DNA of 64,000 nt from a virus. Of the stretch, positions 4,112-62,957 are shown in pieces. The first letter of the stretch is position 1. Each line of letters begins with the position of its first letter. The position numbers and the translations under genes are program-made. The notes beneath the pieces were generated by a model. That model saw only the letters and a list, made by a program, of their open reading frames with translations, was not told the DNA's origin and ran no database searches. The stretch is taken from IMG/VR virus record IMGVR_UViG_3300045988_126875; one strand, given 5' to 3'.

Positions 4112-5529
4112 GCTTTTATCCTATTATAATATTCTATAACCTTTTCTTTTCTATCTCCTGGTTTTACTGCCATATTCTCAGCCAAGAACCTAAAATACGA
4201 CACCGGTATGTCCTTGAATCTAATTCCTTCATATTTTCCAAACCACATTATTATACTATCAAGATCGTCTTCTCTCCTACCATCTCCATTCACAGATTTA
4301 AGCGAGGCTGCCCGACGAAGGATCTCGTCTTTGGTAATAATATCACCCATCCTTATATTAGACAGAAGTTGATCGCCGGCAAACATACACCAGCCCTTAG
4401 AAGGGAATTGCTCGATTGTCAGGTCTTCTATCCGACCAAAGCGTCTCATATTGTCGCAGCAATCAACTATCAGCGCCTCTTTCTTGTCAGGATGGATGCG
4501 GACGGCGCGGCCTAATATTTGGTAATAAGTTGAATATGAGAAAGTTGGTCGACCAAACATCACACAATTAAGTTCAGGAAAATCAAATCCGGTAGCAAGC
4601 GTTGAATAATTAAAAACCACCTTCAACTTACCTTCTTTGAAATCGGATATGATTTGCTCTCTTTTCTTTTTGGTTGTTAGCGATGTTACGACACCGGTTA
4701 TGGCTCCCATCCTGGCATTCATGAACTCTGATATTCTATTACATGATTCGATAGAATCCATGCAAACCAAAATGGCTTTACGCTCGTTCATAAGCTGAAG
4801 AAGACGCTTATAGATAGAGTTGTTTAAGCCGTTTCGTACAATACTTTCTTTAATAGATTCGTTGGTGTATTCGGCTCCGGTACTGTTTAACATCAGAGCC
4901 GATTCATCAAACGACCATCGTTCGTACTTAAGTGGACACCAAAAACCTTGAGAAGTTAGCTCTTGTATTTGTATTACATGAACTATTTTCTTGAAGAAGT
5001 TATGTTCGTCTTTCGTCAGCATATTAAGTTTGCTGTAGTTTCCTTCCAGCATGGAATTGTAGGCCCTGAGTCGGCAGGGAGTGGCGGTGAAGCCCAGCAC
5101 CTTCGCCTCTGGGAACCTGTTCATAAACTCCATAAATTCAGAACCTTCTTCAGGAGAATATCCTGAATGACATTCGTCTATCAATAAGGTATCTATCCCT
5201 ATATCCTTCAACCTCACCACATCTTTCTTTATGCTCTTTAATGTTGCATAAGTCATAGCCGACAGTTCCTTTATACCACATGAAGCAGAATATATGGTAG
5301 GTTTAGCTCCAAATGATACGGCCTTTGCATAATTCTGTTCCAGAATCTCTTTTGATGGCTGCAATACTAACGTCGGTCTATTTATCTCATGCGCTATCTT
5401 GGATATCAGAAGGCTCTTACCTGCTCCGCATGGGGCCACTATTATGCCAGGCTTCTTAGATTTTCCTGTAAGAAACTTAAGCCCGGCATCTACTGCCTCT
5501 TTTTGGTAAGGTCTAAGTTCAAAGCCCAT
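4108..5529 (-). CDS. SF2 DEAD/DEAH-box helicase
   Basis: Motifs RPYQ (Q-motif), APCGAGKS (Walker A), LIDECH (DEAH), FTATP (motif III), later QILGRAVR (motif VI). Confidence 0.75.
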   Translation of the reverse strand: MGFELRPYQKEAVDAGLKFLTGKSKKPGIIVAPCGAGKSLLISKIAHEINRPTLVLQPSKEILEQNYAKAVSFGAKPTIYSASCGIKELSAMTYATLKSIKKDVVRLKDIGIDTLLIDECHSGYSPEEGSEFMEFMNRFPEAKVLGFTATPCRLRAYNSMLEGNYSKLNMLTKDEHNFFKKIVHVIQIQELTSQGFWCPLKYERWSFDESALMLNSTGAEYTNESIKESIVRNGLNNSIYKRLLQLMNERKAILVCMDSIESCNRISEFMNARMGAITGVVTSLTTKKKREQIISDFKEGKLKVVFNYSTLATGFDFPELNCVMFGRPTFSYSTYYQILGRAVRIHPDKKEALIVDCCDNMRRFGRIEDLTIEQFPSKGWCMFAGDQLLSNIRMGDIITKDEILRRAASLKSVNGDGRREDDLDSIIMWFGKYEGIRFKDIPVSYFRFLAENMAVKPGDRKEKVIEYYNRIKA

Positions 5530-5896
5530 CGCAATCTATTTTACTGTTTTTTGAAAGTTCTATTATCGCCTCTTTCAACATTTCCCTTGCTTTATTCTCA
5601 TTATCTTCGAGCAAGCATACACTGCACGATATGCCCATACGATCTCCATAAGCCTCGGCATTACCTAATGTGAATGCGCAGCAGTAATCATAATCCATGT
5701 TTTTTGCTACGGCAATAAACTGATTATCTTCTATCAGTACAGCATATTCAGCATCAGTTTCACACATGATAATGGCTTTATCTTTTTTTATAGACAATAC
5801 CTTGTTTCTGAAAAGTCCGTTATAAATCCATAGTTCCTTTCCTGCATTTTTATAAAACGCAACCATATCTTCCTTGATTGTAACTTCTTTTTTCAT
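5519..5896 (-). CDS. hypothetical protein
   Basis: 125-aa ORF overlapping helicase start. Confidence 0.4.
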   Translation of the reverse strand: MKKEVTIKEDMVAFYKNAGKELWIYNGLFRNKVLSIKKDKAIIMCETDAEYAVLIEDNQFIAVAKNMDYDYCCAFTLGNAEAYGDRMGISCSVCLLEDNENKAREMLKEAIIELSKNSKIDCDGL

Positions 5897-53265: not shown

Positions 53266-53533
53266 GTGTCTTTTTTCGTCCGGAAAACTCCAAAATCCCG
53301 TTACAGATTTGAGAAATATAAGAACAAACTAAGACAAGTAATATTTTTTTTATCATAATTTGTTTCTCATACTTTTCTAACCTGTAACGTACAGCAAATA
53401 TAGAAACAAATAATGAATATCAAATAATAAGTTGTTATTTTTTTAATGTTACAGTGCAAATATCGGGACAAATCCTGAATCCATTGTCATAAAATACGTT
53501 AATTTTAAATTTATAAATCCTTAATGCTTATCT
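53266..53533. promoter_or_regulatory. divergent promoter region between leftward and rightward modules
   Basis: AT-rich 270-bp gap with genes diverging on both sides. Confidence 0.5.
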
Positions 53534-55457: not shown

Positions 55458-55965
55458 TTTTGATTCAGATATAAAGCATCTTATTTCTTATTACAACCAT
55501 CTACTGTCTGCGCAAGACAAGGTGGGAGAGGAGATGGAAGATCTAACTAAGGATATTATTAGGAAGAAGGATGAGGAAAACGACATAGAGTTGGAAGACT
55601 TTATTGATTTGGAGGAAAAGTCGTTTATGACCAACTTGTATCAACAAGAGATGCTGAAAGTATCTTCTTCTATAAAGGCAGTTTACAGGTTATCTATTAA
55701 CGCCGGTCATGATCTTAACATAGATGATGGCAGCAAGAAGATTCTTGACAGGATAGTAAACGACGGAGAATCGGATTTTATTATGTACGTTGATAATAAT
55801 ACTGATTCTGTTGCGTTCAAGGAAGAATCTATTGAGGAAGGAATAAAAAACATGTGTAAGTATCGTGTTGATCCATCTTCTCTTGAAGACAGGTTTAATA
55901 TGCTTAAGTCTCAGTATGAGGCTTTTTTAAAAATGGTGAACAATGAAGGTAAGAAAGCCGACTAA
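55423..55965 (+). CDS. hypothetical acidic protein
   Basis: 180 aa. Confidence 0.4.
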   Translation: MIKRFLIMKKIDFDSDIKHLISYYNHLLSAQDKVGEEMEDLTKDIIRKKDEENDIELEDFIDLEEKSFMTNLYQQEMLKVSSSIKAVYRLSINAGHDLNIDDGSKKILDRIVNDGESDFIMYVDNNTDSVAFKEESIEEGIKNMCKYRVDPSSLEDRFNMLKSQYEAFLKMVNNEGKKAD

Positions 55966-56281
55966 CGATGATGTCTCTTACGTAGATCGGAAACTTATTG
56001 TGCTAAGGGATCAGATAGATAAGGCTGAACGTTATCTATCTGAAAACCCTTGGGATAAAATAGAAGATTCAGATAAGAGGGAGAAAGAATTTAGGTTTCA
56101 AAAGAACTTGTCTGATAGCTTAATGCAATGGACTGAATCTTATATTAAGATGTGTGGGATAATGGATGTCTATAATCAGCTTGAGGCTGCCAAAAACAAG
56201 AAGAGCCTAAAAGGAGGACAAACAGTATCAGGCATTCAGTCTTTTGTCAAGAATGAAGCTAAGAACAAGCTCAATAAGTAG
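55943..56281 (+). CDS. hypothetical protein, candidate small terminase subunit by position
   Basis: 112 aa immediately upstream of and overlapping terL. Confidence 0.3.
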   Translation: MKVRKPTNDDVSYVDRKLIVLRDQIDKAERYLSENPWDKIEDSDKREKEFRFQKNLSDSLMQWTESYIKMCGIMDVYNQLEAAKNKKSLKGGQTVSGIQSFVKNEAKNKLNK

Positions 56282-59200
56282 TTTTGTCATGAATCTTAAC
56301 AGCAAAGAACTTTATATAAATATGGGTAACGATATCCCGTTATGGAATGACCTTTATTCTTATGAAGAGCAAGACGATGATGTCAAGCAATTCTGGGAGA
56401 ATGAGGCTATGAAACTCCTTAACGGTGTTACCATAAATGGAGTATTTATACATCCTTGGCTATATTGGCATATCAATTTCTGGAAGATGATGATTGACGT
56501 AGGAGATGATCGTATTCCTGGAAATTCTCAGCTTCGTGATAATGAATGGATGTTTGCCGAATTTCTAAAGCAGGCGGAAGAAGAGAATAAAGGAATATTC
56601 ATGTTCGGGTGCCGTCGTTTTGGGAAAGCCCTTCTTGATTCTGAGATACTTTATCTTGAGGACCGGGAAAAGATGATAGGAAATATTGTTGTAGGGGATA
56701 AGATATATGACGATAAAGGGAATTTGGTAGAGGTCGTAGGTGTTTATCCCCAAGGAAAAGTAACTACCTACAGAGTCGTATTCGAAGACGGTCGTAACGT
56801 TATTTGCTGCGGTAATCATCAATGGCGCGTCAATCATGGCGGAAAATGGCATGTTAGGAGTCTTAGAGCCATAGCTGGATTAGATTATAAGAGTATGTCT
56901 ATTCCAGTAGGTGAGGCCCTGAACTACCCTACGGCAAAGCTGCCGGTTTCGCCGTCGGCCTACGCCTCGATGCTGGCGGCTTATCTCGGTGGCTATGGAG
57001 GGGATATGTTTTTTGATAAATACGTTTGTAAGAAGTTTTTAAGATCGTCCATAGATCAAAAGAAAGATTTTATAGAAAACTTCATTCGTTCTTTCAGAAA
57101 CGTAGTAACCGGAGAAGAAGAGCTTACGTTGTCTCATATTGACATGGATGTCATAAATTTTGTACAACGTATGTTTTGGGCTTCAGGTTGGTATGCTAAA
57201 TTGGAGGGGAACAAACTTATACTATCAAGGAATCGTAAGGAATTAAAAATAAGATCCATATCAATATACGGAAAGGAACATGCCACCTGTATAACCGTTG
57301 ATAATGATTCTCATTTATTTTTGACCACCAATTACGTCGTTACTCACAATACGGCTATAATGAGCTCCCTACTGGCTCGTAATGCTACAATGACATACAA
57401 TTTGACGCATAATGTTATTGGAGCAAGTAAAGAAGACCTTGCCAATATGGGAGAGTATCTTGAGTTTGGACTTGATAATCTTCCTCCTTATCTTACTATA
57501 AACAGGACCGGTAACGACTGGACTAAAGAAGTTGTTTTAGGTACAAGAAACATCAATAACCAACGTGATGTTCATGCCAGAATAAGAATCACCAACGTTG
57601 ATGATGGAAAGACGCGAGGCTCATTGAAGACCGCAGGTGGAACTCCATATACGTCTATATATGATGAGGTAGGTAAATTTCCGGTGCTTGGAGCATGGCT
57701 TGCCGGTAGGCCGGCTCATATGATGCATGGTAGAATGAGGGGCGTTTGTCTTATGGCTGGATGTTGTTGTGCTGGAACCATAGTATATAAATCAAATGGT
57801 GAGCCATGCCGAATAGAGGATTTGAAGCAAGAGGATGGAATAGTAGGATTCGATAATGTATCATCAAAAGCTGTAAGTCAAGACATAACATGGATGAAAC
57901 CTCCTGCCGAGAAAGAGTGTTACAGAATAACAACGAAAAGAGGAAGGGTGCTTGAATGCAGTGGGGATCATCCCATATTGACTGTTATAAAGAAAAGAAG
58001 TGGTGAATTTAGGTATTTTGGGGCTGACTTCAGAAGAGCTGACTCTCTTAGAGTTGGTCGTAAAATATGTGTATCGGATGGTGTGGATATATGGGGAGAT
58101 AAAAAAATGTTTGATCCATATCTTGTTGGTATTCTAATAGGGGATGGGAGCTATGGTTTTGATAAGACTCCTGTCGTGTCTACCAGTGATAATGAGGTGT
58201 ATGATTATATACGATCTAAATATGAGTGTTGTATAGAGAAACAGTATAAGACTAAGAACGGAAAAGACTATAGGGAAATAAGAATAAAAGGTATATGCCA
58301 TGAGTTAAGGGAACTTGGTATATATGGTCAGACTAAAAAAAACAAAACACTTCCTTTAAATATACATTTATATAGAAGGGAGGATGTTATTATGATGATT
58401 AGGGGGTATTTTGATGCTGATGCTACTTTTTGTTCTAATAATGATAAAAGACATCATCGTATAAGTGTAGGATCTTGTAATAAACATCTTCTTGAAGAAA
58501 TAAAGGATGTTCTTTTTAAATTTGGAATACATAGTACTATTTCTTATAGCCCATCTAAAAATCCAGCAGATAGATCTATTATTCTTGATTCATATGTATG
58601 TAATATATTGGATAAATTATCCATGTTTAAATATTGTAATATAATTGGAACAGATATAGGATATAGAAGAGAAAAACTTGATTCTATAAGGGAATTTAGT
58701 TCTAATTTTAGCACATTTGGTTCTTTTAGGTCAAAATATTTAGATGGAGTGATAATAGAAAGGATAGATAAGATAGAGTATATAGGAATTAAGCCTGTTT
58801 ACAATCTCACTGCATCAGATACTCACACTTATATAGCAAATGGTATTATAACTCATAATACCGGAGGTAATGTAGAAAAGTCTCAAGATGCCCAGAAAAT
58901 CATGAACTCTCCGGACGAATATGGATTCATTATAATGAATTATGATATTATGAATAAGAGAGTTATTAAACCAACATGGCGTATATGTAAATCCGGATGC
59001 TTTGTTCCTGCCCAGATGTCTCATGCGTATGAAAAGACAGAAACTACTCTTGATAAGTATCTTGGAGTAGAGAGTGCTCCCGGTCTTAAGAAGATAAAAA
59101 TAAAAGTTTCAGACTTTGATAAAAATACTGGAATAATAAAATCACGTCTTGACGAACTTGTCAAAAAGGATAGAGCTTTATACGTCCAGGAACGAATGGC

Positions 59201-60155
59201 ATTCCCTTTGTCTATAGATGATTGTTTCCTTAATACGAACGTAAATAGGTTCCCTGTAGAAGATGCGTTGAAGCACAAAAGCCGTCTTCTTGAAGAAGGT
59301 AGGCCTGGTAAAACAGTAGATATTTATCAGATAGACGGCATGAAAATGGGGTGTAATTTTAGTGATAAGCAGCTTGCTGATTATCCGTTTCAAGGTGGTA
59401 ACATAGATTCTCCTGTTGTTATATATGAGGATCCACCAGAAGAAGGAGGTGTTTTTGATTACACTTATGTCTCATCGCTCGACCCATATAAATCTGACAA
59501 GGCTGATACTGATTCTGTTGGTTCGTTTTATGTACTTAAAAGATATGTAAAAATCAACGATCCATTTGCTTATTGCATAGTAGCATCATACGCATCACGT
59601 CCTCCATCTTCTGATGATTTTTGTAGGAATTGTGAAATACTTCAAGAAGCGTATGGGGCCAAGTGTCTTATGGAGAATGCCGACCGAATGTATGAATTTT
59701 ATCTTACGAGACGAAATAAGCAGCTTATGTTGCTGGAAGATGGCGAACGTCTTGCCGGTAAGATTATCCGTGCCGGCGCCCGTCAGAACAACAAGCTCGG
59801 TTTGGCTCCTACGGTTCCCAATCAGCGCATGCTTTTCAATACCGTTATTCAATATTGCTGGGAGGATGTTGTTGTTGGGTATGATGATGATGGTAATGAA
59901 ATAACACAGAAAGGTATTTACCGTATCCCTGATATAGAACTTCTTGATGAGATCATAGCCTTCGGCCCCGGGACCAACACCGACCGTATCATAGCCTTCG
60001 GCCACGCTCTTCTTCTGGCTAAGTATTATGATGATATGGGTTACATGCCTGAAAGTACGACTCAGAAGGAGAATCAAAAGAAGAGAGAGCGCAAGAAGAT
60101 AGAACAGGTCAAAGGATTTACGGTAAGAAGACATAACCCTTATAAAATGAGGTGA
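56244..60155 (+). CDS. terL: terminase large subunit containing two inteins
   Basis: Extein motifs: P-loop GCRRFGK|T (split by intein 1), Walker B TSIYDEVGKF, LMAG|TGGN (split by intein 2); spliced length ~696 aa (~690-700 given the intein-2 boundary uncertainty). Confidence 0.75.
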   Translation: MSRMKLRTSSISSFVMNLNSKELYINMGNDIPLWNDLYSYEEQDDDVKQFWENEAMKLLNGVTINGVFIHPWLYWHINFWKMMIDVGDDRIPGNSQLRDNEWMFAEFLKQAEEENKGIFMFGCRRFGKALLDSEILYLEDREKMIGNIVVGDKIYDDKGNLVEVVGVYPQGKVTTYRVVFEDGRNVICCGNHQWRVNHGGKWHVRSLRAIAGLDYKSMSIPVGEALNYPTAKLPVSPSAYASMLAAYLGGYGGDMFFDKYVCKKFLRSSIDQKKDFIENFIRSFRNVVTGEEELTLSHIDMDVINFVQRMFWASGWYAKLEGNKLILSRNRKELKIRSISIYGKEHATCITVDNDSHLFLTTNYVVTHNTAIMSSLLARNATMTYNLTHNVIGASKEDLANMGEYLEFGLDNLPPYLTINRTGNDWTKEVVLGTRNINNQRDVHARIRITNVDDGKTRGSLKTAGGTPYTSIYDEVGKFPVLGAWLAGRPAHMMHGRMRGVCLMAGCCCAGTIVYKSNGEPCRIEDLKQEDGIVGFDNVSSKAVSQDITWMKPPAEKECYRITTKRGRVLECSGDHPILTVIKKRSGEFRYFGADFRRADSLRVGRKICVSDGVDIWGDKKMFDPYLVGILIGDGSYGFDKTPVVSTSDNEVYDYIRSKYECCIEKQYKTKNGKDYREIRIKGICHELRELGIYGQTKKNKTLPLNIHLYRREDVIMMIRGYFDADATFCSNNDKRHHRISVGSCNKHLLEEIKDVLFKFGIHSTISYSPSKNPADRSIILDSYVCNILDKLSMFKYCNIIGTDIGYRREKLDSIREFSSNFSTFGSFRSKYLDGVIIERIDKIEYIGIKPVYNLTASDTHTYIANGIITHNTGGNVEKSQDAQKIMNSPDEYGFIIMNYDIMNKRVIKPTWRICKSGCFVPAQMSHAYEKTETTLDKYLGVESAPGLKKIKIKVSDFDKNTGIIKSRLDELVKKDRALYVQERMAFPLSIDDCFLNTNVNRFPVEDALKHKSRLLEEGRPGKTVDIYQIDGMKMGCNFSDKQLADYPFQGGNIDSPVVIYEDPPEEGGVFDYTYVSSLDPYKSDKADTDSVGSFYVLKRYVKINDPFAYCIVASYASRPPSSDDFCRNCEILQEAYGAKCLMENADRMYEFYLTRRNKQLMLLEDGERLAGKIIRAGARQNNKLGLAPTVPNQRMLFNTVIQYCWEDVVVGYDDDGNEITQKGIYRIPDIELLDEIIAFGPGTNTDRIIAFGHALLLAKYYDDMGYMPESTTQKENQKKRERKKIEQVKGFTVRRHNPYKMR
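56628..57350 (+). mobile_element. intein 1 (241 aa, Ala1-type N-terminus, degenerate LAGLIDADG-like LAAYLGGYGGD) inserted in TerL P-loop
   Basis: Starts ALLDSEILYL (block A with Ala1), block B-like CCGNHQW, ends VVTHN followed by +1 Thr that restores GKT. Confidence 0.65.
57762..58859 (+). mobile_element. intein 2 (~366 aa) with LAGLIDADG homing endonuclease domain
   Basis: Block A CCCAGTIV, block B ECSGDHPILT, LAGLIDADG motifs LVGILIGDGS and IRGYFDADATF, C-terminal GIITHN + Thr; N-boundary uncertain by 1-5 codons. Confidence 0.7.
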
Positions 60156-60197: not shown

Positions 60198-62957
60198 ATG
60201 GAATATTTCAATAGAGATCAGGCTTTTCCGGCCAGAGGAGTATTTTCAGGTTTGCCGGTACAGGCGATACCTACCAAGAGAAAAACCAAGGAGTGGTTTA
60301 AAGCCACTATGGATTCTCTTGAATTGATTGGTTTGAAGCAGCTTGATGAGAACCAGAAGTTCAAGGATTTTTATAGAATGATGGAAGGTAAGTTATCCTT
60401 TATGGAGCTGAAAGACGTAATTCCTTATCTTAAGGATGTTCAGTCTATAAGGGACAATGTAAATATTCCATCATTCTTACGTCATTATGATATAATAGGT
60501 ACGATCGTAAACGCTTTTGTAGGATGGTTGGGCAACCTTTCTGACAAGTATAATGTAGTTGGATTGGACGAATCTGAAGTGAATCAGTATTCTGCCACGA
60601 AGGAGAATCTCCTTCATAATTACATTAAAGAGGAATTGGACAGAAGGGTTAGGCAAGAATTGTTAAATAGGGGATTGGATCCGGATTATAATAATTTTGC
60701 AAGCGAAGAAGAAAAGCAGGCTTATGCTCAACAGATACAAGAGGTGAAAGCATCTATGACCCCTCCTGAGATAGAGAATTTCATGAATACAAAATGGAAG
60801 ACTGCCGAGGTTATATGGGGTTCTCATACGCTTGAAGCAGACAGGGGGCGTTTTTACATGGATGAGATAGACACCGAGAATTTCATCGACTATCTTCTTA
60901 CCGGTCGTTGTTTTAGAAACTATCATGTAGGATACGACTATTATAAGCCGGAGAGATGGTCTCCGTTGAATACGTTTTATTCTAAGACATTAGATAGCAA
61001 GTATCCGCAGTACGGTGATTATATTGGTCGTGTTCATTATTATACTGCCAATGATATTATAGTAAGGTGGGGGCATCTTCTTACGGCAAAAGACAAGCAA
61101 AAGCTTATAGGAGGTGCTGATAATTTCAATGGCACTTATCATAATGGTGATAATGGAAGCTATGTAAGTTTATCCAAATCGGCGAGTGTAGGGATGTTAT
61201 ATCAGAATAAGGTAATACCTTGGAAAGGATATAATGATTATGCTTCTATAAAAGCTTATGAGGATTATTACGGTATTCCAGCCGGCACATATACCGGATA
61301 CGATAGTAATGGCAACGAATATCACAGAACCAGATTCATGCCAAATTTAGAGCATGGTAATTATTATAACCGTGCCCAGAGTTTAAGCGACGAGCATGTT
61401 CGTAGTGATTTGTATCAGGTAACTGAATCATATTGGGTATCCCCGGCTCAGGTGTATGTAATTACCTACCAAACTGAAACCGGATTAGTAACTACTGAAA
61501 TGGTAACCGACGAGCTTCTTCAAGACTTTTTACAGGAAAATGGTATTAAGAAAATTACCAGGACCATGAGTAAGGGAATGGAGAACCCGGAGATTAATAC
61601 CTATTTCGTAGATTACGTTCCACAGGTAAGGTATGGGGTTAAGATCAGCGGCGGTGCTCTCGCTCAGGACAACCTGTATCTGGATGGAGAACCTATCGAT
61701 CACCAGATAAAAGGGGATAGCAACATCTATGACTTTGTTCTACCCGTTGCCGGATATATCGGTACTTCTATGGCTAACAGGATTCAGCCATATCAAATAT
61801 TTTATAATTTCTCCATAAACCAGATAAACAATATTCTTGAAAAGGAGATCGGTAAATTCTTCTTAGGGGATATTAATTTGGTTCCAAGTGAATATAAGGA
61901 TTTGGGTGAAGATGTGGCTGATATATGGGCAAACCTTCTTGATGTGGCTAAGTCTGTTGGTGCTCTGACATTAGATACCTCATCTCAAAATACGAAAGGC
62001 GGTGTTCCTTTCAACCAGTTCGCCGTCTATGATTTGTCGCAGACAGAGCAGCTTAAAACAAGAATGGAGCTTGCTGAATGGTCAAGGATGAAGTGTTTTG
62101 AAATGGTTGGCATCACGCCTCAAGTAATTAACGGCCCCAACAGGTATGAGACTGCCACCGGAGTCCAGCAGGGCGTTACGGCATCTATGTTACAAACACA
62201 GATATACTTTGATAACTTCGGTTATTTCAAGAAACGGGCTCTCGATCTTCATCTGGCCGTTGCTCAACAATGCCAGGAAGAAGGAAAGGATATTTCTGTA
62301 ATGTACACAAAAAGTGACCTTACCAGAGCGTTTTTATCTATAGGAACCGACGGTCTTAGCCTAAGGCATCTTGGTGTTCAAGCTTTATCCAACTCGAAGA
62401 AAAGGGATGAGCTTGAAAAGTTCAAGACCTTTATGTTGCAGCTAAATACGGCCGGAGGAGACATTTACGATCTTGCATCTATCTTCACATCAGATTCTAT
62501 GGTGGAACTTATACAGAATGCAAGGAATACTCGCGCATACAACGAGCGTCAGATGCAGCAGCAACAACAGAATCAGATGCAGCTTAACCAGCAACAGATA
62601 CAAGCTGAAGCTGCTGAGAAGGATAAGCAACGTCAGCATGAACTTGCTTTGGAAGACAAGAAAGGTCAATACAGGATACTTCAAGAGAAGATACAGGCGG
62701 CAGGCAGGGCGGCAGACGCCAAGAGCGACGCCACCTCCCTCAACTTCCTGGCTTCTGTTTCAGATCAGACCGTAAGGCAAGCTGATATAGAAAGTAAGGA
62801 AAGGATAGAGGATAAGAAAATTGAAAACGATTCCAAACTTCATGATGATGAAATGAGAATGAAAATGGAAGAGTTAAAATTAAAATCCAAAGAGCTTGCT
62901 CAACGAGCGAGGGAAGATGCCACCAAAAGATATGTAGCCGGAATCAATAAGAATTAA
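60198..62957 (+). CDS. putative portal protein
   Basis: 919 aa directly after terL; C-terminal Gln/Glu-rich coiled-coil; call by position and size. Confidence 0.5.
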   Translation: MEYFNRDQAFPARGVFSGLPVQAIPTKRKTKEWFKATMDSLELIGLKQLDENQKFKDFYRMMEGKLSFMELKDVIPYLKDVQSIRDNVNIPSFLRHYDIIGTIVNAFVGWLGNLSDKYNVVGLDESEVNQYSATKENLLHNYIKEELDRRVRQELLNRGLDPDYNNFASEEEKQAYAQQIQEVKASMTPPEIENFMNTKWKTAEVIWGSHTLEADRGRFYMDEIDTENFIDYLLTGRCFRNYHVGYDYYKPERWSPLNTFYSKTLDSKYPQYGDYIGRVHYYTANDIIVRWGHLLTAKDKQKLIGGADNFNGTYHNGDNGSYVSLSKSASVGMLYQNKVIPWKGYNDYASIKAYEDYYGIPAGTYTGYDSNGNEYHRTRFMPNLEHGNYYNRAQSLSDEHVRSDLYQVTESYWVSPAQVYVITYQTETGLVTTEMVTDELLQDFLQENGIKKITRTMSKGMENPEINTYFVDYVPQVRYGVKISGGALAQDNLYLDGEPIDHQIKGDSNIYDFVLPVAGYIGTSMANRIQPYQIFYNFSINQINNILEKEIGKFFLGDINLVPSEYKDLGEDVADIWANLLDVAKSVGALTLDTSSQNTKGGVPFNQFAVYDLSQTEQLKTRMELAEWSRMKCFEMVGITPQVINGPNRYETATGVQQGVTASMLQTQIYFDNFGYFKKRALDLHLAVAQQCQEEGKDISVMYTKSDLTRAFLSIGTDGLSLRHLGVQALSNSKKRDELEKFKTFMLQLNTAGGDIYDLASIFTSDSMVELIQNARNTRAYNERQMQQQQQNQMQLNQQQIQAEAAEKDKQRQHELALEDKKGQYRILQEKIQAAGRAADAKSDATSLNFLASVSDQTVRQADIESKERIEDKKIENDSKLHDDEMRMKMEELKLKSKELAQRAREDATKRYVAGINKN

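Follow-up and report, generated by a model that had tools for sequence, protein, structure and literature searches.

Two inteins interrupt the large terminase subunit of an epsilon crAss-like phage: a fixed, most likely class 3 intein in the P-loop and a polymorphic class 1 intein in the C-motif

The large terminase subunit (TerL) is the most intein-rich protein of mycobacteriophages, where class 1 and class 3 inteins occupy sites in the P-loop, Walker B and the C-motif (PMC5050341). The TerL1-a inteins of these phages lie at the 'classic' P-loop site, between Lys and Thr of Walker A (Kelley et al. 2016, PMC5050341), and the TerL6-f inteins lie in the ATPase C-motif, ~30 residues past Walker B (PMC5050341). 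Among crAss-like phages, introns and inteins have been reported for the delta and zeta groups, not for the epsilon group (PMC7886860); in the delta-group cMAG OBYQ01000140, TerL comes in three in-frame pieces with two 'Hint-Hop' inteins (Yutin et al. 2021, PMC7886860). As for the epsilon group, the word 'intein' is absent from the paper describing its genome (PMC11054128), and according to a 2025 paper epsilon genomes are free of mobile genetic elements (PMC12386605). The subject of the present analysis is a 64,000-nucleotide (nt) stretch of viral DNA, IMG/VR record IMGVR_UViG_3300045988_126875 (the window), in which the open reading frame (ORF) at 56244-60155 is the TerL of an epsilon crAss-like phage, interrupted by two inteins. 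Both appear to be unreported for this group; no new mechanism is involved, as LAGLIDADG homing, class 3 splicing, TerL inteins and their P-loop and C-motif sites were established before.

Class 3 inteins are defined by a non-nucleophilic residue 1, by Trp at B:12, Cys at F:4 and Thr at G:5 (the WCT triplet) and by Thr or Ser at position +1 (PMC2807308; PMC5050341). The first intein of the window (intein 1) shares the non-nucleophilic residue 1, the WCT triplet, the His-Asn pair and Thr/Ser +1 with the Bethlehem DnaB intein (PMC2807308) and the Msm and Mch DnaB-1 inteins (6BS8, 6RIX, 6RIY). These solved class 3 inteins are mini-inteins with another extein and insertion site, whereas intein 1 retains an endonuclease remnant of ~120 amino acids (aa). 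With TerL1-a it shares the Walker A Lys/Thr site in a phage large terminase; it differs in TerL family, in host phylum (the carrier is a crAss-like phage of Bacteroidota), in its probable class 3 nature and in its half-decayed endonuclease. Identity to mycobacteriophage inteins is ~25%, and no close relationship to them was detected beyond the shared intein blocks. The second intein (intein 2) lies, like TerL6-f, in the C-motif, in a different TerL family. The likeness to OBYQ01000140 is one of published description, with a phage from a different crAss family (delta, with TAG recoding). The parts of the interrupted gene are the following.

56244..60155, plus strand: TerL precursor ORF, 1303 aa, 149.0 kDa, TTG start, stop codon counted in the coordinates
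56244..56627, plus strand: N-extein, aa 1-128, ending with the first part of Walker A, GCRRFGK (aa 122-128)
56628..57350, plus strand: intein 1, aa 129-369, 241 aa, 27.4 kDa, ALLDSEILYL...NYVVTHN, most likely class 3
57351..57761, plus strand: middle extein, aa 370-506, beginning with the Walker A Thr and containing Walker B
57660-57674, plus strand: Walker B YDEVG, aa 473-477, within SIYDEVG of the middle extein
57762..58859, plus strand: intein 2, aa 507-872, 366 aa, 1098 nt, 41.9 kDa, CCCAGTIV...GIITHN, class 1
58860..60152, plus strand: C-extein, aa 873-1303, beginning with the C-motif TGG (TGGN, aa 873-876) and including the nuclease domain

A preliminary description, made from the sequence alone, had read this ORF as a terminase with two inserts; the ORF, the motifs quoted from it and both insert positions are confirmed to the residue. 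In silico removal of the inserts leaves 696 aa (79.7 kDa), exactly the length that had been given as approximate for a contiguous terminase with intact GKT and YDEVG, and restores an uninterrupted Walker A (GCRRFGK-T), Walker B (SIYDEVG) and C-motif (AG-TGG). The identification of the host protein as TerL is likewise upheld: the spliced extein matches phrog_6681 'terminase large subunit' from end to end (E = 1.3e-78, residues 21-683 to profile positions 65-747 of 758) and, in tblastn, annotated TerLs of Cellulophaga and crAss-like phages. Its score against Pfam Terminase_6N is 13.9 bits, under the cut-off of 22, and a PDB sequence search with the extein gave no match. Alignment to the intein-free TerL of Cellulophaga phi17:2 (34% identity) bears out the insertion points with zero gaps at both junctions, namely RRFGK/TAIMSS against RRLFK/STGLAS at junction 1 and LMAG/TGGN against ILSG/TGGN at junction 2 (here and below a slash marks the insertion point). 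The reading frame is unbroken in all 39 of 39 related two-intein contigs. The start codon is ambiguous, being either the TTG at 56244 or an alternative ATG at 56253, preferred by most database entries. The nearest deposited genome, with ~97% nucleotide identity across the surrounding 12 kb, is crAssE-Sib (OR575929), the type genome of epsilon crAss-like phages (PMC11054128).

Intein 1 lies between Lys128 and Thr370 of the P-loop and splits Walker A into GK and T. Its boundaries are fixed because intein-free homologs read straight across the P-loop, as in RRLFK/ST of Cellulophaga phi17:2 and SRRIGK/SC of the TerL P0172. The key residues are Ala129 (position 1), His192 (B:10), Trp194 (B:12), Cys349 (F:4), Thr367 (G:5), the pair His368-Asn369 and Thr370 (+1). 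Searches by phmmer with intein 1 retrieved the gp41-1 intein (E = 1.8e-8) and the class 3 DnaB inteins of solved structure 6BS8, 6RIX and 6RIY, and PHROG families that contain inteins match it significantly. The alignment to the solved class 3 inteins pairs HQW of block B, xCxxVDNxxHL of block F and THN of block G; Trp194, Cys349 and Thr367 fall on the same residues of 6BS8, which aligns over blocks B, F and G and matches in fold too. An AlphaFold2 model of intein 1 has a mean predicted local distance difference test (pLDDT) score of 76, and all 23 of its 23 Foldseek matches in the PDB with E <= 1e-3 are inteins, in agreement with a Hint fold. The best structural matches are PI-SceI and the Tli and Pho VMA inteins (1DFA, 1LWS, 7QSU, 7QST; TMq 0.46-0.60), which likewise combine a Hint fold with an inserted LAGLIDADG-type domain; those are class 1 inteins with active two-motif endonucleases, whereas intein 1 holds about half such a domain and no catalytic acids.

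The same residues are conserved far beyond the window. In intein numbering, A1, H64, W66, C221 and [TS]HN are retained in homologs down to 42% identity, all inserted at the same K/T bond, and also in same-site relatives that are either mini-inteins or endonuclease-complete. Position 1 is invariably Ala among intein 1 homologs except for Asp in P0230, G:5 is Ser in one lineage (P0150/L002), and the +1 residue, Thr370 in the window, is Ser in P0160, P0187 and P0230. In close alleles GNHQW, ATCITV and VTHN are invariant (72 of 72), and intein 1 is found in every related allele with a readable P-loop region (176 of 176, that is 72 of 72 and 104 of 104). The ratio of non-synonymous to synonymous polymorphism (pN/pS) is 0.06 for intein 1 and 0.05-0.09 for the exteins; here and below these values carry reduced weight, being sums over non-independent pairs. 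These sequence features make class 3 the most likely assignment. The preliminary label 'class-3/Ala1-type' thus holds in its class 3 part, with the WCT triplet and Thr+1 in place, while its merging with the KlbA-type class 2 mechanism does not. An exhaustive search among representatives found the TerL family to be rich in inteins: P0172 is intein-free, P0168 and P0174 carry mini class 3 inteins in the P-loop, in P0187 the class 3 intein of the P-loop has a LAGLIDADG endonuclease complete with both motifs, and further members carry additional inteins. An intein 1 homolog is also carried by the ~53% identical TerL of L002 (MT839152, marked UNVERIFIED), whose gene is split over three frames, probably through sequencing or assembly errors; the L002 protein corresponds to P0150 in a large database, with 126 member sequences.

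The middle of intein 1 is a further domain:

56883..57242, plus strand: intein 1 middle domain, intein aa ~86-205 (~120 aa), a decayed LAGLIDADG endonuclease

Alignment to P0187 identifies the motif 1 remnant as PSAYASMLAAYLGG, in which the acid of GDG is lost and after which ~60 residues are deleted, and the motif 2 remnant as DFIENFIRSFRNV, in which the acid is likewise lost. The segment LAAYLGGYGGD, previously described as a degenerate LAGLIDADG-like stretch, is thereby recognised as the remnant of motif 1, and the second remnant comes in addition. The catalytic acids are replaced in LGGYGG and IRSFRN, most of the first half-domain is deleted, the two-motif LAGLIDADG signature is lacking, the motif 1 region varies among homologs, and Pfam LAGLIDADG models find no match in the middle domain. 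What remains is well folded in the AlphaFold2 model (pLDDT 80-96), where the top Foldseek matches are PI-SceI and the VMA inteins, and has a pN/pS of 0.11. As read from these alignments, the endonuclease is reduced to about one LAGLIDADG half-domain, predicted to be catalytically dead, with homing lost. In other words, intein 1 is an old element, fixed in its lineage, that has lost its nuclease. A new role for the decayed domain is conceivable because it is fixed across the clade and under purifying selection near the terminase's own; such a phage-domesticated intein, in which the domain could bind DNA, act as a chaperone of folding or splicing, or gate TerL maturation conditionally (e.g. in response to redox state or metal), is rather improbable.

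Intein 2 is inserted between Gly506 and Thr873 (G/TGG), 32 residues past the Asp-Glu of Walker B, at an invariant GTGG. By its position and its conservation relative to Cellulophaga TerL, this GTGG is taken as the putative ATPase coupling motif (C-motif). The key residues of intein 2 are Cys507 (position 1), His576 (block B, B:10), the pair His871-Asn872 and Thr873 (+1). It exceeds the curated cut-offs of PF14890 Intein_splicing (48-52 bits against 35.8), TIGR01445 (27.4 against 24.5) and TIGR01443 (28.5 against 15.6), thereby passing the NCBIfam intein_Nterm and intein_Cterm thresholds, and its central part is recognised by an endonuclease model:

58077..58736, plus strand: LAGLIDADG homing-endonuclease domain of intein 2, PF14528 LAGLIDADG_3, 45.7 bits (cut-off 22.5)
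58122-58151, plus strand: LAGLIDADG motif 1 of intein 2, LVGILIGDGS, with Asp634
58398-58430, plus strand: LAGLIDADG motif 2 of intein 2, IRGYFDADATF, with Asp724 and Asp726

Intein 2 is therefore canonical, as had been claimed from its blocks A and B and both LAGLIDADG motifs. The motifs, with their acidic residues (LIGDGS and FDADAT), are invariant in 40 of 40 intein 2 alleles, and the endonuclease is apparently intact, judging from its sequence. Intein 2 has a pN/pS of 0.14 as a whole; its endonuclease domain has a pN/pS of 0.22 and a GC content of 29.7%, against ~40% in the exteins. The closest relatives, at 31-46% identity over the full length, are the TerL inteins of Dulem virus 41 and Dulem virus 42, uncultured phage cr53_1 and Podoviridae sp. 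ct2m58, which share the equivalent G/C site and a LAGLIDADG domain. Their exteins are only distantly related to that of the window, which argues for site-specific lateral spread across Crassvirales TerL families. More distant relatives (35-37% identity) are housed in a non-TerL protein.

Alleles without intein 2 occur in nature. crAssE-Sib and the very common 934- and 937-aa alleles lack it exactly, with a gap of 1098 nt (366 codons) at 57762-58859; empty alleles read VCLMAG/TGGN, and the common ones have flanks as in the window. The window-type empty site is ...GTTTGTTTGATGGCGGGA/ACTGGCGGTAATGTAGAA..., also written ...ATGGCGGGA/ACTGGCGGTAAT..., the Sib-type empty site is ...ATGATGATATGCTCCGGT/ACGGGCGGCAACGTTGAA..., and the predicted spliced junction peptide of TerL is GVCLMAGTGGNVEK. 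Intein 2 begins at the first Cys of CCC, and the ambiguity of this boundary is settled because the natural empty alleles fix the ends independently. Among 74 related IMG/VR loci, the frames of which are all open, 39 have the full 366-aa intein 2 and 19 are empty, and in 13 the same bond holds a mini-intein of 144 aa. When the entire IMG/VR viral collection was scanned without bias for exact patterns, with lower-bound counts per allele class, there were at least 43 contigs with full intein 2, at least 15 with the mini-intein, at least 34 with the window-type empty allele and at least 42 with the Sib-type empty allele. No frequencies were drawn from word-indexed database searches with single inteins, which returned mostly fragments and left known 934-aa proteins with intein 1 unlisted.

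The polymorphism bears marks of exchange at the insertion site. Full intein 2 occurs as two haplotypes ~94% identical, plus recombinants, and the association of single-nucleotide polymorphisms (SNPs) with intein 2 status is highest within ±150 nt of the site and falls off outward. In a backbone-distance analysis the downstream anchor failed in 28 of 72 loci and inflated the mean; only the closest pair was therefore used, after verification by direct alignment. This near-identical pair, L011 (full) and L069 (empty), differs by the exact 1098-nt indel and by 12 SNPs, all synonymous, from -82 to +180 nt, with zero differences over the next ~2600 nt; the chance that 12 of 13 SNPs would fall within that flank is P ~2e-13. 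Projected on the window, the tract is as follows:

57680..59039, plus strand: co-conversion tract span seen in relatives, with 12 synonymous SNPs around intein 2

The window has the intein-linked state at seven of the 12 tract sites, including all four upstream ones. The tract has the form that co-conversion during repair at a homing site classically leaves, and fits an event in either direction. A second line of evidence comes from L022, which carries a 94%-identical intein 2 in a Sib-type extein, with flanks only 78% identical to those of the window; the intein is far closer than its flanks and has therefore moved from one extein background to another. The mini-intein, at the C-motif site in L045-L056, L058 and L163-L177 and in P0120 and P0141, resembles full intein 2 at its termini (85-91% nt identity) and much less in its interior (47-67%). 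By this pattern it is not a simple deletion derivative of full intein 2, and the contrast suggests that two intein lineages competing for one site have recombined or been homogenised. Intein 2 seems younger than intein 1 and still spreading, and empty terL alleles are probably still being invaded through its endonuclease. The preliminary proposal of active homing agrees with the population data for intein 2 and fails for intein 1, which is fixed and has no working endonuclease.

The Sib-type flank deserves separate mention. crAssE-Sib is ~97% identical to the window genome-wide and only 65-85% identical in a tract from ~-390 to +280 nt centred on the empty intein 2 site (L001 ~5125-5518 and 5519-5795, equivalent to window 57368-57728 and 58862-59135). 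This junction is a second common extein haplotype, because the same junction is found in 42 IMG/VR contigs. An explanation of the tract as co-conversion left by intein 2 entering the window lineage was rejected; Sib is the divergent one, because the common empty allele has window-like flanks. Its explanation as an endonuclease-resistant, 'immune' allele is weakened by L022, where a Sib-type flank bears the full intein. Two database proteins add observations at or near these sites. P0001 (969 aa, NCBI source), which is without intein 2, has a 35-aa tandem duplication (VEKSQDAQ...CFVPA) starting four residues past the insertion site, possibly left by repair or introduced in assembly. P0157 (1317 aa), with a TerL 73% identical to that of the window, carries, within the nuclease domain, a third intein that has a LAGLIDADG domain (YVSG/CLLPG...AISN/CDPYK), at a conserved LDPYK motif where the window is uninterrupted (YVSSLDPYK, aa ~1075-1081, nt ~59466-59490).

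TerL must be spliced to function because both inteins split motifs indispensable to the ATPase, and splicing finds indirect support because all splicing residues are under strong purifying selection in an abundant phage. It is very probable that the 149-kDa precursor loses both inteins to give a working 696-aa packaging ATPase-nuclease, by the following routes. Intein 1, with no N-terminal nucleophile, would most likely take the class 3 route, in which attack by Cys349 of block F on the peptide bond between Lys128 and Ala129 would give a branched thioester, the N-extein would be passed to the side chain of Thr370, Asn369 would cyclise, and an O-to-N shift would rebuild the GK-T peptide bond. 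Intein 2 would follow the standard class 1 pathway, with Cys507 as nucleophile, Thr873 as acceptor and cyclisation of Asn872. During co-infection, its endonuclease would cut an intein-less terL at G/TGG, and the intein would be copied in by double-strand-break repair. Intein 1 would do without homing and be kept by vertical descent, locked in because only a precise deletion could safely free an essential active site.

The anatomy, exact boundaries, conservation of catalytic residues, purifying selection, presence/absence polymorphism and co-conversion tract are observed; from them we infer splicing of both inteins, class 3 chemistry and present-day endonuclease activity. Several points weigh against this account. 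Comparison with intein hidden Markov models (HMMs), by which the preliminary description proposed to check both inserts, succeeds for intein 2 and fails for intein 1, which is under every curated cut-off (Hom_end_hint 15.5 against 32.1 bits, TIGR01443 11.6 against 15.6), with nothing over cut-off in Pfam and NCBIfam scans. In the AlphaFold2 model of intein 1, pLDDT is below 50 at residues 1-9 and 225-241, and blocks A, F and G are poorly modelled; because these termini are of low confidence, the placement of Cys349 beside the scissile bond is not checkable structurally. For intein 2, the L011/L069 event amounts to a localised recombination that fits gain or precise loss alike, and general recombination could also be its cause. 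One view, which we consider unlikely, is that intein 2 is no longer self-mobile and is an old polymorphism shuffled by ordinary homologous recombination in co-infections, its enzyme inactive or decaying. The endonuclease domain is indeed the least constrained part of the gene, a mini-intein without endonuclease coexists at the site, the Sib-type divergent tract indicates that the region recombines anyway, and the L011/L069 event could have run either way. However, a pN/pS of 0.22 still denotes clear purifying selection, both motifs and their acids are intact throughout the 40 alleles with zero frameshifts or stops, the tract of exchange is short, with the site exactly at its centre, and across extein backgrounds the intein is better conserved than its flanks.

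The alternatives concerning intein 1 fare less well than its class 3 reading. Splicing by another route, for instance direct attack of Thr370 on the N-terminal junction as in class 2 (KlbA-like) inteins, has in its favour that Ala1 is a hallmark of class 2 too; it is quite improbable, as class 2 inteins are without the WCT triplet and use Cys+1 (PMC2807308), whereas Trp194, Cys349 and Thr367 are all present and invariant alongside Thr+1, and the best sequence matches of solved structure include class 3 DnaB inteins. Highly improbable is a third view, in which insert 1 is not excised, being either a permanent domain in this lineage of TerL or an intein that is dead and that the P-loop tolerates. 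It would accommodate fixation in the clade, the missing endonuclease activity and the failure of curated intein models, yet it would leave 241 residues between the Walker A Lys and its Ser/Thr partner, where GK[ST] is contiguous in intein-free homologs, and would not fit class 3 splicing residues that are all invariant and under strong purifying selection. Moreover, relatives carry mini, half and full-endonuclease versions at exactly this peptide bond, a pattern that marks an intein rather than a host domain. The preliminary description had named integral, non-excised segments in homologous TerLs as what would speak against inteins; instead, intein-free homologs and empty intein 2 alleles exist. 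Its further suggestion that two inteins imply post-translational control of packaging is unsupported, the inteins being indistinguishable from constitutively splicing selfish elements. A role as conditional switches that gate TerL maturation and regulate packaging, e.g. by redox through Cys-rich junctions, is accordingly improbable: several cysteines do occur close to the catalytic centres (in intein 1 Cys349 and the ICCG of block B, in intein 2 the initial CCC), and purifying selection acts on the non-catalytic middle domain of intein 1 (pN/pS 0.11), but the sequence holds nothing that requires regulation, selfish inteins generally insert at conserved active sites (PMC5050341), and intein 2 is dispensable, because about two thirds of related phages do without it.

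For epsilon crAss-like phages, which are abundant in the human gut, these results correct the record. No epsilon-type TerL examined is free of inteins, and two are present in about a third of those classified; TerL trees and the TerL-based taxonomy of the group are thus built on proteins with one to three inteins. Intein 1 illustrates that a fixed class 3 intein can slip past every curated intein HMM. In one uncultured phage population, the terL locus captures the homing cycle in a natural snapshot, with endonuclease-bearing, mini and two kinds of empty alleles and a co-conversion tract, and the cycle can be followed in public metagenomes.

The gene order around TerL has a TerS-like ORF upstream and the portal gene directly downstream:

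55943..56281, plus strand: TerS-like ORF, 112 aa, whose crAssE-Sib counterpart is annotated as putative small terminase subunit
60198..62957, plus strand: portal protein gene, 919 aa, directly downstream of TerL

With the TTG start, the 5' end of TerL shares 38 nt (window 56244-56281) with the end of the TerS-like ORF. Upstream of the terminase module, window 53294-53443 shows an isolated dip in identity to crAssE-Sib, 72% against a background of ~97%.

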